Assembly (NCBI RefSeq): GCF_003018115.1 | Contig: NZ_CP027457.1 | Reading direction: 5' to 3' (one strand) | Length of the DNA stretch: 64,000 nt | Origin: Escherichia coli | Lineage (GTDB): Bacteria; Pseudomonadota; Gammaproteobacteria; Enterobacterales; Enterobacteriaceae | Shown: piece by piece, positions 3,256 through 23,626 of the stretch | How the letters are laid out: every line of letters begins with the position of its first letter | Position numbering within the stretch: position 1 is the stretch's first letter | The notes under the pieces: generated by a model | The model's database searches: none | What the model saw: only the letters and a program-made list of their open reading frames with translations | What the model was told of the DNA's origin: nothing | Made by a program: the position numbers and the translations under genes

Positions 3256-3601
3256 TGCGTCTTTACCTTTTAGAAAGATGAGCCTGTTCGCACAGAAAAG
3301 CCGTCCCCGAGATGGTCGCCACCATATACGGCAATTCTCAGGCTCAGCTTTCTGAAAGACTCGGGATTGTTACGCGCTGCGATGCGCGGTTTACTGCAGA
3401 TGTAAAAAAGCCCCGCTACTGCGAGGCTAAATCCTGGTGTTTGTGATGACTGGCCCTTATCTCAACGCAGCCCCTTACCGCGCGCCAGATGCTCAATATC
3501 AAGCATCAGCAATGAGATGTTTAATCTGGATTCACTCCAGAAGTGATCACCACCCTGTCTACAGAGCCAGATGTGAAGGATGATGAGTAGAATTATCGCT
3601 A

Positions 3602-4039
3602 TCATCGAAGGCATTGCGTCCTGATGTATTCCTGCAGGTAGTTAACCTGCGCGGTTATCCTGTCGATTCCACTTCGGAGACGGTAATAATTGAGTTCAGC
3701 ATCTGCTGTAAGTCTTGGGCTTTCTCCATCGCCCATGCTGCTGGCTCCGGTCGTTGACTTTGCACAGGTGGCGGAGACTTGCAGGCGCTTACGACCAACA
3801 GAAACATCAGCACGGAGACTTTCGATAGTCGCGTTAGCATCAGCAAGCTCCTTTGTGTATCTGGCGTCGAGTTCTGCTACATCACGTTGACGCTTCTGCA
3901 TATCAGCGATGATGGATGTGGCTTTGTCGCGCTGGTCTTTATAGGCGATGGCGTTATCACGGTAATGATTAACAGCCCATGACAGGCAGACGATGATGCA
4001 GATAACCAGAGAGGAGATAATCGCGGTTACTCTGCTCAT
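3602..4039 (-). CDS. Rz: Rz spanin (inner-membrane subunit)
   Basis: 145-aa ORF beginning [30 protein letters not shown] (lambda Rz-like N-terminus), overlapping the endolysin stop. Confidence 0.8.
3655..3846 (-). CDS. Rz1: Rz1 spanin (outer-membrane lipoprotein), embedded in Rz in another frame
   Basis: ORF nested inside Rz with signal peptide, lipobox cysteine (LLVVSAC) and proline-rich segment ([13 protein letters not shown]); true start probably an internal Met. Confidence 0.65.
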
Positions 4040-15845: not shown

Positions 15846-16744
15846 GCAATATCGTTGAATTCGTTAAACAGCAAGAGCAGTTATTCTGCGGAGCATTGAC
15901 TGAACAGACGGTGACATGGGCTAAGGAAAGCCAGTTTGCAATTCAGTATTTCCAGAAAAACGATTACCTGGCTAAAACAGCACTGGCAAATCCAACCAGC
16001 GCACAGAACGCCATCATCAATGTTGCGGCGATCGGCATCACCTTAAACCCGGCCAGCAAACTGGCTTATCTGGTTCCTCGCGACGGCATGGTGTGCCTTG
16101 ATATCAGTTACATGGGATTACTTCATCTTGCGCAATCGACAGGATCAATTAAGTGGGGGCAATGCAAACTGGTGTACTCAAACGACACCTATGAATCAAA
16201 TGGCCTTGATTCAGCACCAACCCACAAATACAACGCATTTGGTGAGCGAGGCTCTATTGTTGGAGGTTATTGCACGGTTAAAACAGCAGATGGTGACTAC
16301 CTGACTGAAGAAATGAGTCTGGCAGAAATTAAAGCTGTGGAAGCAACGAGCAAGGCAAAGAATGGACCGTGGAAAACATTCTGGGAAGAGATGGCGCGTA
16401 AAACAATAGTTAAACGCGCCAGCAAATACTGGCCTAAAGCCCAGCGACTGGATAATGCCATTCACCTGCTTAACGAAGATGAAGGTGTGCATCAGGAACC
16501 AGTTATGCCGCACAAATCAGAGGAAGATATCCGCGAAGATGAACGGAAACGCCAGCAGGAAATAATGGATAAAGCACAACTTCTTTGCGATGAAATGTCT
16601 CAGGCAGAAAACATGGATGATTTGAAGCGATATTTTGCAGAAGCATATCGCCTGACATCTGGAATGAAATTGCAGCAGAACGTACAAGCCATTTACATAG
16701 AATGCAAAGCGAAACTGGAGGTTGCCAGTGAGCAAACTGTATGA
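15842..16744 (+). CDS. recT: RecT-family single-strand annealing protein
   Basis: 300-aa ORF; motif NGPWKTFWEEMARKTIVKRASKYWP matches the RecT signature. Confidence 0.8.
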   Translation: MSNIVEFVKQQEQLFCGALTEQTVTWAKESQFAIQYFQKNDYLAKTALANPTSAQNAIINVAAIGITLNPASKLAYLVPRDGMVCLDISYMGLLHLAQSTGSIKWGQCKLVYSNDTYESNGLDSAPTHKYNAFGERGSIVGGYCTVKTADGDYLTEEMSLAEIKAVEATSKAKNGPWKTFWEEMARKTIVKRASKYWPKAQRLDNAIHLLNEDEGVHQEPVMPHKSEEDIREDERKRQQEIMDKAQLLCDEMSQAENMDDLKRYFAEAYRLTSGMKLQQNVQAIYIECKAKLEVASEQTV

Positions 16745-17973: not shown

Positions 17974-18468
17974 GTGGCGGAGTGGGAAGAAATGAAACTA
18001 ATGTCACTAATTGAGATGGATGGTTTTCTGAAAGGTAAATGCATCCCACGAGATTTAAAGGTTAACGAAACAAACGCTGAATATCTGGTGCGTAAGTTCG
18101 GTGAGCTTGAATCAAAACTGGAAACGGCGTTGCGGGAGTGTCGTTCTGCTGGAATCACGATTGATAACCTTGAGGCTAAATGCGCGAAGATGGCTGCTGA
18201 AAATACCTCGCTTAAGCAATCTGAGAAGGAATTTAATGACTTTTGTCGTGAGGAGTTTAGCGAATGGGAAGATGATGTTACTGAACCCCAAGCCACCGAT
18301 GCTTTCCTGGCTGAAGTCCGGGCTAAGGCGTTTGATGACCTTTGCGCGGCGTTCGTTAAGCACGCGTCGGTGTCCGGGCTGGACGATGGCGACTGCGTTA
18401 CGGTGAAAGAGGCGACTGACGCCCTGCTGCATTGTGCGGAACAGCTTCACGAGGGAGTGCATTCATGA
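17974..18468 (+). CDS. Hypothetical acidic coiled-coil protein (about 158-164 aa)
   Basis: ORF; stop overlaps the next gene's ATG (ATGA). Confidence 0.5.
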
Positions 18469-18707
18469 GCAACCTACTACCATGTCCATTCTGTGGCGGC
18501 GCAGCGCACGTTGCCAGCGAAGCAGATCACCCTGAATATGGCTCTGGCGGTCGATTCTATTTCGTTCGATGCGGTACGTGTCGCGCTCAATCTGGTAGCA
18601 AATATGCAGCGCCTGGAAATGACTGCGCGATTTTTTATTCAGAGGTTAGAGCAGAGTGGAATCAGCGAGCAAAGGAGGCAACCAGTGAGCGGAAAAAGAA
18701 TGACTAA
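18465..18707 (+). CDS. lar: Lar-like restriction alleviation protein (CPFCGG zinc-finger)
   Basis: From ATG 18465: [42 protein letters not shown]..., the Cys pattern of the Lar family. Confidence 0.5.
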   Translation: MSNLLPCPFCGGAAHVASEADHPEYGSGGRFYFVRCGTCRAQSGSKYAAPGNDCAIFYSEVRAEWNQRAKEATSERKKND

Positions 18708-18909
18708 CAGAGAGCTTGTTGATGCCGCCATTAAGCTTGCTGGTGATTTTTATTCAATGATGGGGTACACGCATCGCCCAGGCTTCAAATATTGGGAGTC
18801 TCCGCACCCGCAAGAGCAACTGGTATTTCAAATGGCCTGCCGTGCTTTTGAGGTTATTCGCGGTTCTGATGTGATGGACGCCGTTGCCGACTTGGAGGAT
18901 GAAGAGTGA
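18685..18909 (+). CDS. Hypothetical protein (about 74 aa)
   Basis: GTG at 18685 preceded by AAAGGAGG; overlaps the Lar 3' end in another frame. Confidence 0.45.
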   Translation: MSGKRMTNRELVDAAIKLAGDFYSMMGYTHRPGFKYWESPHPQEQLVFQMACRAFEVIRGSDVMDAVADLEDEE

Positions 18910-19358
18910 GCAAGATTGACTATCAGGCACTGCGTGAAAAGGCAGAGAAAGCAACGTGTGGGGTGTGGTCGCTCGAATATGGAGAGGAGAGATTTGATGC
19001 TGATGATGCGCTAATTCATCGTGAAGTTGTTGGATATCTTCCCATTTGCAGAATTGAAGGAGCGCATCCAGAAAGCGGTTTCGATGAAGATTTCCAAATG
19101 GAACAGCAGGCCAATGCTGAATTCATCGCCGCAGCCAATCCAGCTACCGTGCTGGCGCTGCTGGATGAGCTGGAAGCCAAAGACAAGCGGATTGCTGACA
19201 TGGAGGCGCGGGAGGTTGTACTGCCGCGTGCGCACGATGTTCACCCATTAGGGCCGCAGGCGGCGAAAATTTTTTGTGAGTTTCACCGGAGTATCGTGAA
19301 CAGATGCGCCGATGAGATTCGCAAGGTTGGCATCAAAGTCAGCATCAAGGGGAATTAG
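18906..19358 (+). CDS. Ea22-like early protein
   Basis: 150-aa ORF with AAANPATVLALLDELEAKDKRIADME motif typical of Ea22-family proteins. Confidence 0.45.
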   Translation: MSKIDYQALREKAEKATCGVWSLEYGEERFDADDALIHREVVGYLPICRIEGAHPESGFDEDFQMEQQANAEFIAAANPATVLALLDELEAKDKRIADMEAREVVLPRAHDVHPLGPQAAKIFCEFHRSIVNRCADEIRKVGIKVSIKGN

Positions 19359-19362
19359 GGAT

Positions 19363-19896
19363 ATGGCTGAACTAACCAAAGAATGGCTGAAGCAAACTAT
19401 CGCTGAATACGAAGCCAATCGTGATGAATTACCGTTTGGACTGGATACCAACAGTGCCATTGGGCTTCAGGCGTTCAAGTTGGCGCTGGCATCGCTGGAA
19501 GCAGAGCCGGTGGCGTGGGAGGTAACCTTCACGCAAATTGACCGTGAATATAACACGTTCACTGGTATGTATCCTGACAAAGCAGAAGTCGAACGGTGGG
19601 TGCGTCTGCATAAAGCATGTAATTTTCGGGCAGATATAACACCGCTTTATACCGCCAAGCCAGTGCCGGTAACTCCGGATGGTTGGATAAGCTGTAGTGA
19701 GCGAATGCCGGAAAAGAATCAGAACGTGCTTATTTCGGTGAATTTCGATAGCTCTCTGGTTGAACCGCTAATATGCTCCGCACGCTATACAGGAAGCACA
19801 TTCCGGCGAGGGGAAGCAACGATTAAGCCGGGTAATGGTATTGAGCAGGCAACTCACTGGATGCCGCTACCAGAACCGCCGCAGGAGGCGAAATGA
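19363..19896 (+). CDS. DUF551-like phage protein
   Basis: About 177-aa ORF with C-terminal ATHWMPLPEPP motif seen in DUF551 prophage proteins. Confidence 0.5.
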   Translation: MAELTKEWLKQTIAEYEANRDELPFGLDTNSAIGLQAFKLALASLEAEPVAWEVTFTQIDREYNTFTGMYPDKAEVERWVRLHKACNFRADITPLYTAKPVPVTPDGWISCSERMPEKNQNVLISVNFDSSLVEPLICSARYTGSTFRRGEATIKPGNGIEQATHWMPLPEPPQEAK

Positions 19897-20801: not shown

Positions 20802-21020
20802 ATGTACTTGACACTTCAGGAGTGGAACGCACGCCAGCGACGCCCAAGAAGCCTTGAAACAGTTCGTCGATGGGTGCGCGAATGCAGGATATTCCCACCA
20901 CCGGTTAAGGATGGAAGAGAGTATCTGTTCCACGAATCAGCGGTAAAGGTTGACTTAAATCGACCAGTAACAGGTAGCCTTTTGAAGAGGATCAGAAATG
21001 GGAAGAAGGCGAAGTCATGA
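20802..21020 (+). CDS. xis: Excisionase (lambda Xis-type)
   Basis: 72-aa ORF MYLTLQEWNARQRRPRSLETVRRWVRECRIFPPPVKDGREYLFHESAVKV..., recognised as lambda Xis; overlaps int start. Confidence 0.85.
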   Translation: MYLTLQEWNARQRRPRSLETVRRWVRECRIFPPPVKDGREYLFHESAVKVDLNRPVTGSLLKRIRNGKKAKS

Positions 21021-22068
21021 GCGCCGGGATTTACCCCCTAACCTTTATATAAGAAACAATGGATATTACTGCTACAGGGACCCAAGGACGGGTAAAGAGT
21101 TCGGATTAGGCAGAGACAGGAGGATAGCAATCACTGAAGCTATACAGGCCAACATTGAGTTATTTTCAGGACACAAACACAAGCCTCTGACAGCGAGAAT
21201 CAACAGTGATAATTCTGTTACGTTACATTCATGGCTTGATCGCTACGAAAAAATCCTCGCCAGCAGAGGAATCAAGCAGAAGACACTCATAAATTACATG
21301 AGCAAAATTAAAGCAATAAGGAGGGGGCTGCCTGATGTTCCACTTGAAGACATCACCACAAAAGAAATTGCGGCAATGCTCAATGGATACATAGACGAGG
21401 GCAAGGCGGCATCAGCCAAGTTAATCAGATCAACACTGAGCGATGCATTCCGAGAGGCTATAGCTGAAGGCCATATAACAACAAACCCGGTCGCTGCTAC
21501 TCGCGCAGCAAAATCAGAGGTAAGGAGATCAAGGCTTACGGCTGACGAATACCTGAAAATTTATCAAGCAGCAGAATCATCACCATGTTGGTTAAGACTT
21601 GCAATGGAACTGGCTGTTGTTACCGGACAGCGAGTTGGTGATTTATGCGAAATGAAGTGGTCTGATATCGTAGATGGATATCTTTATGTCGAGCAAAGCA
21701 AAACAGGCGTAAAAATTGCCATCCCAACAGCATTGCATGTTGATGCTCTCGGAATATCAATGAAGGAAACACTTGATAAATGCAAAGAGATTCTTGGCGG
21801 AGAAACCATAATTGCATCTACTCGTCGTGAACCGCTTTCATCCGGCACAGTATCAAGGTATTTTATGCGCGCACGAAAAGCATCAGGTCTTTCCTTCGAA
21901 GGGGATCCGCCTACCTTTCACGAGTTGCGCAGTTTGTCTGCAAGACTCTATGAGAAGCAGATAAGCGATAAGTTTGCTCAACATCTTCTCGGGCATAAGT
22001 CGGACACCATGGCATCACAGTATCGTGATGACAGAGGCAGGGAGTGGGACAAAATTGAAATCAAATAA
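20998..22068 (+). CDS. int: Tyrosine integrase (lambda Int-type, 356 aa)
   Basis: 356-aa ORF MGRRRSHERRDLPPNLYIRNNGYYCYRDPRTGKEFGLGRDRR..., recognised as lambda Int; transcribed toward the att junction. Confidence 0.9.
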   Translation: MGRRRSHERRDLPPNLYIRNNGYYCYRDPRTGKEFGLGRDRRIAITEAIQANIELFSGHKHKPLTARINSDNSVTLHSWLDRYEKILASRGIKQKTLINYMSKIKAIRRGLPDVPLEDITTKEIAAMLNGYIDEGKAASAKLIRSTLSDAFREAIAEGHITTNPVAATRAAKSEVRRSRLTADEYLKIYQAAESSPCWLRLAMELAVVTGQRVGDLCEMKWSDIVDGYLYVEQSKTGVKIAIPTALHVDALGISMKETLDKCKEILGGETIIASTRREPLSSGTVSRYFMRARKASGLSFEGDPPTFHELRSLSARLYEKQISDKFAQHLLGHKSDTMASQYRDDRGREWDKIEIK

Positions 22069-22202: not shown

Positions 22203-23486
22203 GTGAACACATTTTCAGTTTCCCGTCTGGCGCTGGCATTGGCTTTTGGCGTGACGCTGACCGCCTGTAGCTCAACACCACCCGATCAACGTCCTTCTGA
22301 TCAAACTGCGCCTGGTACCTCTTCTCGCCCGATTCTGTCGGCAAAAGAAGCGCAGAATTTCGATGCTCAACACTATTATGCATCCCTGACACCAGGTGCT
22401 GCAGCGTGGAATCCGTCCCCGATAACCCTGCCTGCGCAACCTGACTTTGTTGTCGGCCCGGCGGGTACTCAAGGTGTAACGCATACCACGATTCAGGCGG
22501 CGGTAGATGCGGCAATTATCAAGCGCACCAACAAGCGCCAGTATATTGCCGTGATGCCTGGTGAGTATCAGGGAACGGTGTATGTCCCTGCTGCTCCAGG
22601 TGGAATTACTCTGTACGGTACAGGTGAAAAACCGATTGATGTGAAGATTGGGCTTTCCCTTGATGGGGGCATGAGCCCTGCCGACTGGCGTCACGACGTC
22701 AACCCGCGCGGCAAATATATGCCAGGTAAACCAGCGTGGTATATGTACGATAGCTGCCAGCGCAAACGCAGCGACAGTATCGGTGTTCTGTGTTCTGCGG
22801 TCTTCTGGTCACAAAACAATGGCCTGCAACTGCAAAATCTGACCATCGAAAACACGCTGGGCGATAGCGTAGATGCAGGTAACCATCCGGCGGTGGCACT
22901 GCGTACTGACGGTGACCAGGTACAGATTAACAACGTTAACATTCTCGGTCGTCAGAACACCTTCTTTGTCACCAACAGCGGTGTGCAGAACCGTCTGGAA
23001 ACGAATCGTCAGCCGCGTACGCTGGTGACCAACAGCTACATTGAAGGGGATGTGGATATCGTTTCTGGTCGCGGCGCAGTGGTGTTCGATAACACCGAAT
23101 TCCGCGTGGTGAACTCACGTACTCAGCAAGAAGCGTATGTGTTTGCACCGGCTACGCTGTCCAACATCTATTACGGTTTCCTCGCCGTAAACAGCCGTTT
23201 CAATGCTTCCGGTGATGGCGTGGCGCAACTGGGCCGCTCGCTGGATGTTGATGCCAATACCAACGGTCAGGTGGTGATCCGTGATAGCGCCATCAACGAA
23301 GGTTTTAACACGGTTAAACCGTGGGGCGATGCGGTGATCTCTAATCGTCCGTTTGCGGGTAATACCGGCAGCGTTGACGATAGCGACGAAATACAGCGCA
23401 ATCTGAATGACACTAACTACAACCGCATGTGGGAATACAATAACCGCGGCGTGGGTAGCAAAGTGGTTGCAGAGGCGAAGAAGTAA
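22203..23486 (+). CDS. ybhC: Pectinesterase-like outer-membrane lipoprotein YbhC
   Basis: 427-aa ORF with lipoprotein signal (LTACSS); position adjacent to attB-lambda. Confidence 0.9.
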   Translation: MNTFSVSRLALALAFGVTLTACSSTPPDQRPSDQTAPGTSSRPILSAKEAQNFDAQHYYASLTPGAAAWNPSPITLPAQPDFVVGPAGTQGVTHTTIQAAVDAAIIKRTNKRQYIAVMPGEYQGTVYVPAAPGGITLYGTGEKPIDVKIGLSLDGGMSPADWRHDVNPRGKYMPGKPAWYMYDSCQRKRSDSIGVLCSAVFWSQNNGLQLQNLTIENTLGDSVDAGNHPAVALRTDGDQVQINNVNILGRQNTFFVTNSGVQNRLETNRQPRTLVTNSYIEGDVDIVSGRGAVVFDNTEFRVVNSRTQQEAYVFAPATLSNIYYGFLAVNSRFNASGDGVAQLGRSLDVDANTNGQVVIRDSAINEGFNTVKPWGDAVISNRPFAGNTGSVDDSDEIQRNLNDTNYNRMWEYNNRGVGSKVVAEAKK

Positions 23487-23501
23487 GAGCTATTAACTAT
23501 T

Positions 23502-23612
<111 letters not shown>

Positions 23613-23626
23613 TCACATGGCGCTTT

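Follow-up and report, generated by a model that had tools for sequence, protein, structure and literature searches.

A Lar-like gene and the small gene that overlaps its 3' end in an Escherichia coli prophage are, in our reading, very probably two independent accessory cassettes that have become neighbors in a pL operon under N antitermination; the prophage is lambdoid and integrated at the lambda attachment site. The genes of the pL accessory region are packed head to tail, short conserved junctions provide the ribosome-binding site (RBS) and start codon of each next gene, and recombination at these junctions shuffles entire genes. A PhiV10p47-like cassette of 225 nt has been inserted between the Lar-like gene and ead. 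The Lar-like protein itself, to judge from distant homology, would lower EcoKI-type (type IA) restriction early in infection and favor modification of unmodified phage DNA.

The window, by which we mean the whole 64,000-nt stretch of DNA analyzed here, is E. coli chromosome in which a lambdoid prophage occupies the lambda attachment site. Early genes, among them those for N, RecT and a cI-like repressor, lie 5' of the locus; xis and int (20998-22068) lie 3' of it, and beyond them stands ybhC (22203-23486). The Lar-like gene and the downstream open reading frame (ORF) are placed between recT and xis/int, in the pL delayed-early accessory ("ea") region, in agreement with the early-operon location that an earlier note on this DNA had proposed, and no terminator-like site was found on the + strand between 17000 and 20190. 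Reading along that strand, the upstream cassette is an Eae-like gene (PHROG 614; 17974-18468), whose stop codon shares an ATGA with the start of the Lar-family zinc-ribbon gene (18465-18707; RefSeq WP_072019243.1). Inside the 3' end of the latter lies the shared cassette junction AAGGAGGCAACCAGTGAGC (18672-18690), which contains the Shine-Dalgarno sequence and GTG start of the next gene. That gene, the PhiV10p47-like member of PHROG 4132 (18685-18909; 74 or 69 aa; RefSeq WP_001350881.1), makes up the 225-nt cassette, and is followed by an ead/Ea22-like gene (18906-19358; Pfam PF13935, 4e-22), the next cassette, whose GTG start overlaps the preceding stop within a GTGA. The sequence confirms both ORFs of interest at the coordinates the earlier note had given.

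Two E. coli chromosomes in RefSeq match a 701-bp stretch across both ORFs at 100% identity, and in them PGAP labels the products "Lar family restriction alleviation protein" (WP_072019243.1) and "hypothetical protein" (WP_001350881.1). Both genes and their family assignment are thus already public in RefSeq and PHROGs, and the locus is an ordinary one. Further along the operon, the ead/Ea22-like ORF (150 aa, 18906-19358) and a DUF551 ORF (194 aa, 19312-19896) share 47 nt and match successive parts of phrog_60 (columns 1-109 and 114-282 of 461); they may be parts of a single Ead-DUF551 gene that a frameshift or recombination joint has divided. Just past ybhC and outside the prophage, sub-threshold Rfam matches to naRNA4 (REP-like repeats) occur at 23489-23624.

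Judged by its sequence, the Lar-like protein belongs to the Lar superfamily, as a divergent member. The ORF runs from ATG 18465 to TAA 18705-18707 and encodes 80 aa with a CPFCG...CGTC zinc ribbon followed by EWNQR. The protein matches PHROG 599 and exceeds the gathering cut-off of Pfam PF14354 (Lar_restr_allev; 38.4 bits against 28.6), with model positions 2-58 of 58 aligned to residues 3-69. The resemblance to Lar of the Rac prophage noted earlier therefore stands as a family relationship, backed by the Pfam match and by aligned invariant residues, but does not extend to the NCBIfam model TIGR03655 (anti_R_Lar), for which the protein scores 29.6 bits against a cut-off of 39.6 (Rac RalR reaches 55.3 in the same search), nor to close identity with Rac Lar/RalR from K-12 (26% over 42 aa by BLASTP). 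In an alignment of 11 homologues plus RalR, the invariant positions are P6, C7, P8, F9, C10, G11, C36, C39, G44, E60, W65 and R68; the set includes the four cysteines of the zinc ribbon (C7, C10, C36 and C39), which are the predicted Zn ligands, and W65 and R68 of the C-terminal W-N-x-R helix. An AlphaFold (AF2) model (pLDDT 83) has three strands and a C-terminal helix. The conserved core stops near residue 69 (EWNQRA), and residues 70-80 form a non-conserved tail that varies among homologues and is encoded by the junction and the beginning of the next cassette.

What the Lar-like protein does can be stated with moderate-to-low certainty: it probably targets restriction-modification enzymes of type IA early in infection, as first described for Lar. 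We infer restriction alleviation only from distant homology, given the 26% identity to Rac Lar and the score below the NCBIfam cut-off. Rac Lar is the sole experimental basis for the term "restriction alleviation" (King and Murray 1995, as cited in PMC11482910), and its function is itself disputed, since PMC4041452 reports no restriction inhibition and describes a DNase toxin, RalR, instead.

The downstream ORF extends from GTG 18685 to TGA 18907-18909 and encodes 74 aa in the +1 frame relative to Lar. As the earlier note had described, this GTG has a strong RBS (GGAGG at 18674-18678, six nt 5' of the start) and lies within Lar in another frame, giving an overlap of 23 nt. For the start codon there is evidence on both sides. 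In favor of GTG 18685 are the strong RBS and the D6-type relatives that have an ATG at that place, 15 nt upstream, where it overlaps the upstream stop. In favor of the in-frame ATG at 18700, the start chosen by RefSeq/PGAP, are a nearly invariant Met6 preceded by five variable residues and several family members that begin there; this start would give 69 aa and an 8-nt overlap (ATGACTAA). A 138-aa ORF can also be drawn at 18493-18909; it is merely the downstream frame staying open 5' through Lar, found no independent support and was set aside.

The boundary between the two genes bears directly on the proposal of two independent cassettes. In Salfasec13b, ST104 and other P22-like Salmonella phages, ead/Ea22 comes straight after the Lar gene, without the 225-nt cassette between them. 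Compared with Salfasec13b, the difference is an exact 225-nt indel whose ends are GTGAGC direct repeats (18685-18690 and 18906-18911). The junction in the window is GGAGGCAACCAGTGAGC, with the RBS and start codon lying inside the non-conserved Lar tail; in Salfasec13b, where the cassette is absent, the junction directly precedes ead, and in HK629 and phiV10 the cassette follows unrelated genes with an identical junction, GCAAAGGAGGCAACCAGTGAGC. The P1-like phage D6 carries the cassette after a DUF4752 gene, with a different junction and an unchanged layout. The motif GGAGGN6GTGAGC (GGAGGNNNNNNGTGAGC) occurs twice in the window, against 0.03 occurrences expected, at 16717-16733 (RecT/Gp157) and at 18674-18690 (Lar/next gene), a recurrence that fits short conserved linkers acting as the recombination joints of a mosaic. 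A looser copy of this motif is present at 18894-18911.

The same junction accounts for the overlap. Most genes 5' of the junction end at the TGA of its GTGA, and Lar, in another frame, reads through; because of this frame offset, Lar gains seven extra codons into the next cassette, which produces both the 23-nt overlap and the variable tail. Before ead, the Lar tail reads KEATSEQD to the stop, for a total of 77 aa and a 14-nt overlap; before the cassette it reads KEATSERKKND, for a total of 80 aa. Overlaps are common in the operon: of the ten junctions examined, four overlap by 4 nt (ATGA/GTGA) and three by 22-23 nt. Since the junction is generic and overlaps are common in the pL operon, we view the overlap as a by-product of modular junctions, one that would give at most ordinary translational coupling, as at other operon junctions. 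At two other loci (L034 and L048), another small protein, ending in SFCPFCGESLKTWEAEATSEWKKND, reads through the junction into the cassette in a Lar-like way, and one further protein (P0010) looks recombinant, joining the domain of the downstream gene to the C-terminus of the SFCPFCGESLKTWEAEATSEWKKND-ending protein. Within the overlap, at 18690-18703, the Lar frame reads CGG-AAA-AAG, a shift-prone Lys-Lys run. We considered whether frameshifting could fuse Lar with the downstream ORF, which lies in the +1 frame, and rejected this: a -1 slip meets the TGA at 18701-18703 at once, and a Lar fusion product via slippage is not expected.

The distribution of the two genes is that of separate entities. 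Across 5426 complete E. coli genomes, the Lar allele of the window is found in 46 and the downstream gene in 149, where 87 of its 154 places are on plasmids; the two are juxtaposed in three genomes, and the other 43 of the 46 Lar-allele genomes lack the downstream gene. Viral genomes give a similar picture. Among 80 IMG/VR loci that carry the downstream gene, the ORF before it is readable in 78; it is Lar in one, DUF4752-like in 35, Eae-like in 34, DUF2737-like in three and something else in five. A second set of 80 IMG/VR loci, chosen for Lar-family genes of 25-99% identity, contains no clear PHROG 4132-family ORF within 2.5 kb of the Lar-family gene; one marginal PHROG 4132 match (E = 0.008) lies 1.6 kb away. 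Two distant PHROG 4132 members that were examined are surrounded by small phage genes lacking annotation, and Lar is not among their neighbors. Adjacency of Lar and PHROG 4132 genes, the mark of an obligate two-gene module, is not conserved, and the Lar-like gene and the downstream gene are not an obligate pair. Cooperation in the rare genomes where both genes are adjacent would be compatible with their independent occurrence.

These counts and the generic junction do not support the anti-defense pair envisaged in the earlier note: both genes are juxtaposed in three genomes, against 46 with the Lar allele and 149 with the downstream gene, and in one of 78 and none of 80 viral loci. In its fullest form, that idea would have a dedicated two-gene module in which Lar and the downstream protein act together, for instance as a complex against type I restriction, and the overlap matches their amounts. 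The two genes do lie next to each other in an early accessory region, where they overlap and are transcribed together; the downstream protein, like many phage inhibitors, is small and acidic (pI 4.6-4.9); and six distant PHROG 4132 members are fused to CxxC...CxxC zinc ribbons. We nonetheless find a dedicated module very improbable: the juxtaposition is rare (3/46 and 3/149 in E. coli, 1/78 and 0/80 in viral loci), and the overlap is made by a generic junction common to Lar and other downstream genes. The fused zinc ribbons were examined as a possible link to Lar and rejected, as neither Pfam nor a Lar HMM places any of the six in the Lar family.

We give equally little chance to a RalR-type toxin-antitoxin system, in which the Lar-like protein would serve as a DNase toxin, countered by an antisense sRNA of the RalA kind or by the acidic protein encoded downstream. 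The Rac prophage offers a precedent, with ralR followed by the 69-codon rcbA/ydaC at an 8-nt overlap and RalA on the opposite strand (PMC4041452), and the geometry in the window is identical if ATG 18700 is used. In RalR/RalA, however, the antisense sRNA RalA lies beside the toxin gene and is complementary to the mRNA of the toxin over about 16 nt, and the window locus has no counterpart of it. The Rfam model of RalA (RF02694) finds nothing between 12000 and 24000 at E <= 1, against 225 bits for the Rac positive control; the antisense strand of 18465-18909 is free of promoter-like and terminator-like sites; and the Lar coding region is not touched by any inverted repeat of at least 12 nt. Equal length and overlap also prompted a comparison of the downstream ORF with RcbA/YdaC, but neither BLASTP nor hhalign finds similarity, and this candidate homology was dropped. 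The Lar allele, moreover, is tolerated alone: of the 46 E. coli genomes that carry it, 43 lack the downstream gene. The NCBIfam equivalog model for RalR (NF007260), which scores RalR itself at 166 bits, does not match the window protein. Substitutions of RalR R49 and K52 reduce toxicity (PMC4041452), and these residues align with E64 and Q67 of the Lar-like protein (residues 64-68, encoded at 18654-18668), while the W-N-x-R motif is kept; the Lar branch in the window may therefore be without the DNase toxicity reported for RalR.

The downstream ORF is a real, conserved protein gene. Its product matches the PHROG 4132 profile over its full length (E = 8.7e-43) and has the core motif A-A-I-x-L-A-x-x-F-Y...G-Y...G-F-x-Y...S-x-H-P-x-E. 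Close relatives comprise 88 cluster representatives (61-100% identity) in Enterobacterales and their phages, and a profile search of 1.84 billion representatives retrieves 431 clusters (at 50% identity) with E <= 0.001, many of them longer proteins with the PHROG 4132 domain at the C-terminus. The domain occurs free-standing, in tandem copies (two members) or fused to varied N-terminal regions; distant relatives bearing it include P0089, P0129, P0124, P0128, P0154, P0185, P0217 and P0092. Against its most diverged close relatives, with up to 48 substitutions, the ORF has a pN/pS of 0.08-0.11 (about 0.09) and is under strong purifying selection, and its AF2 model is confident (pLDDT 91.6), with helices at 8-25, 42-59 and 63-73. 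The suggestion that it is a chance open frame in the Lar 3' region and adjoining intergenic DNA, which would suit a short ORF annotated only as hypothetical, belonging to no Pfam family and open upstream as far as 18493, is refuted by these conservation data, and is also at odds with the multi-domain and tandem-repeat proteins among the 431 clusters, the confident model and the fact that unrelated phages carry it as a discrete cassette equipped with an RBS.

Searches of Pfam, NCBIfam and PADLOC with the downstream protein returned zero matches, and a Pfam run on long family members found nothing. No solved structure in the PDB is related to it by sequence profile, and the best Foldseek hit there has E = 1.7; in BFVD, Foldseek finds a single uncharacterized homologue, from Acinetobacter phage Presley. 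A literature search by accession or PHROG number found no papers on the protein. It may have a role of its own, apart from Lar, perhaps one of binding a host protein, although this is a weak inference. Tentatively, and with low confidence, we suggest that PHROG 4132 is a widespread uncharacterized phage domain whose invariant aromatic/His-Pro-x-Glu surface might bind a host defense or repair factor. If so, the PHROG 4132 protein would be a new anti-defense or host-takeover protein by itself, independent of Lar.

With its two adjacent, independent cassettes, this locus illustrates cleanly and on a small scale the shuffling of whole genes by lambdoid and P22-like phages at short RBS/start junctions, and shows that such junctions can give rise to overlapping genes and variable protein tails that mimic designed coupling. 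Beyond annotation hygiene, the significance is little; the remaining leads are modest, namely a divergent Lar branch that lacks two residues linked to RalR toxicity, and the role of the widespread PHROG 4132 domain.

Among known systems, the functional parallel is lambda Ral, likewise an early accessory protein of the pL operon. Ral has no sequence relationship to the Lar-like protein and occupies a different operon position: lambda ral adjoins N. By enhancing modification, Ral relieves restriction of type IA, which is what Lar was first credited with (PMC12707154). Closer in sequence is Rac Lar/RalR, which shares with the window protein its small size, a CPFCG...CxxC zinc ribbon and, after the ribbon, a helix bearing the W-N-x-R motif; the Rac gene also lies in a pL operon after recT and before xis/int, with its 3' end overlapped by the next ORF. 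RalR has 64 aa against 80 in the window, where insertions occur between the zinc knuckles and before the helix, and the Rac neighbor rcbA/ydaC is unrelated to the downstream ORF of the window despite its equal length (69 codons) and 8-nt overlap. The ralR/rcbA arrangement lies at 3532-3928 of the E. coli K-12 Rac locus in our set (L007).

The closest counterparts are found one gene at a time. ST104 ORF9, Salfasec13b gp033 and the E. coli prophage gene for WP_072019243.1 match the Lar-like gene of the window at 95-100% nucleotide identity, with the same Eae-like gene upstream and the same junction; in the two P22-like phages ead/Ea22 comes next and the protein ends in SEQD at 77 aa, whereas in the window the cassette stands between and the protein ends in SERKKND at 80 aa. 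PhiV10p47, HK629 gp34 and D6 orf95, all hypothetical proteins of PHROG 4132, are 88-99% identical in protein sequence to the downstream ORF and equal in length, and have the same start-codon layout, with a 4-nt overlap on their upstream gene. In these phages that upstream gene is Eae-like, HK620p08-like or DUF4752, and not Lar as it is in the window.
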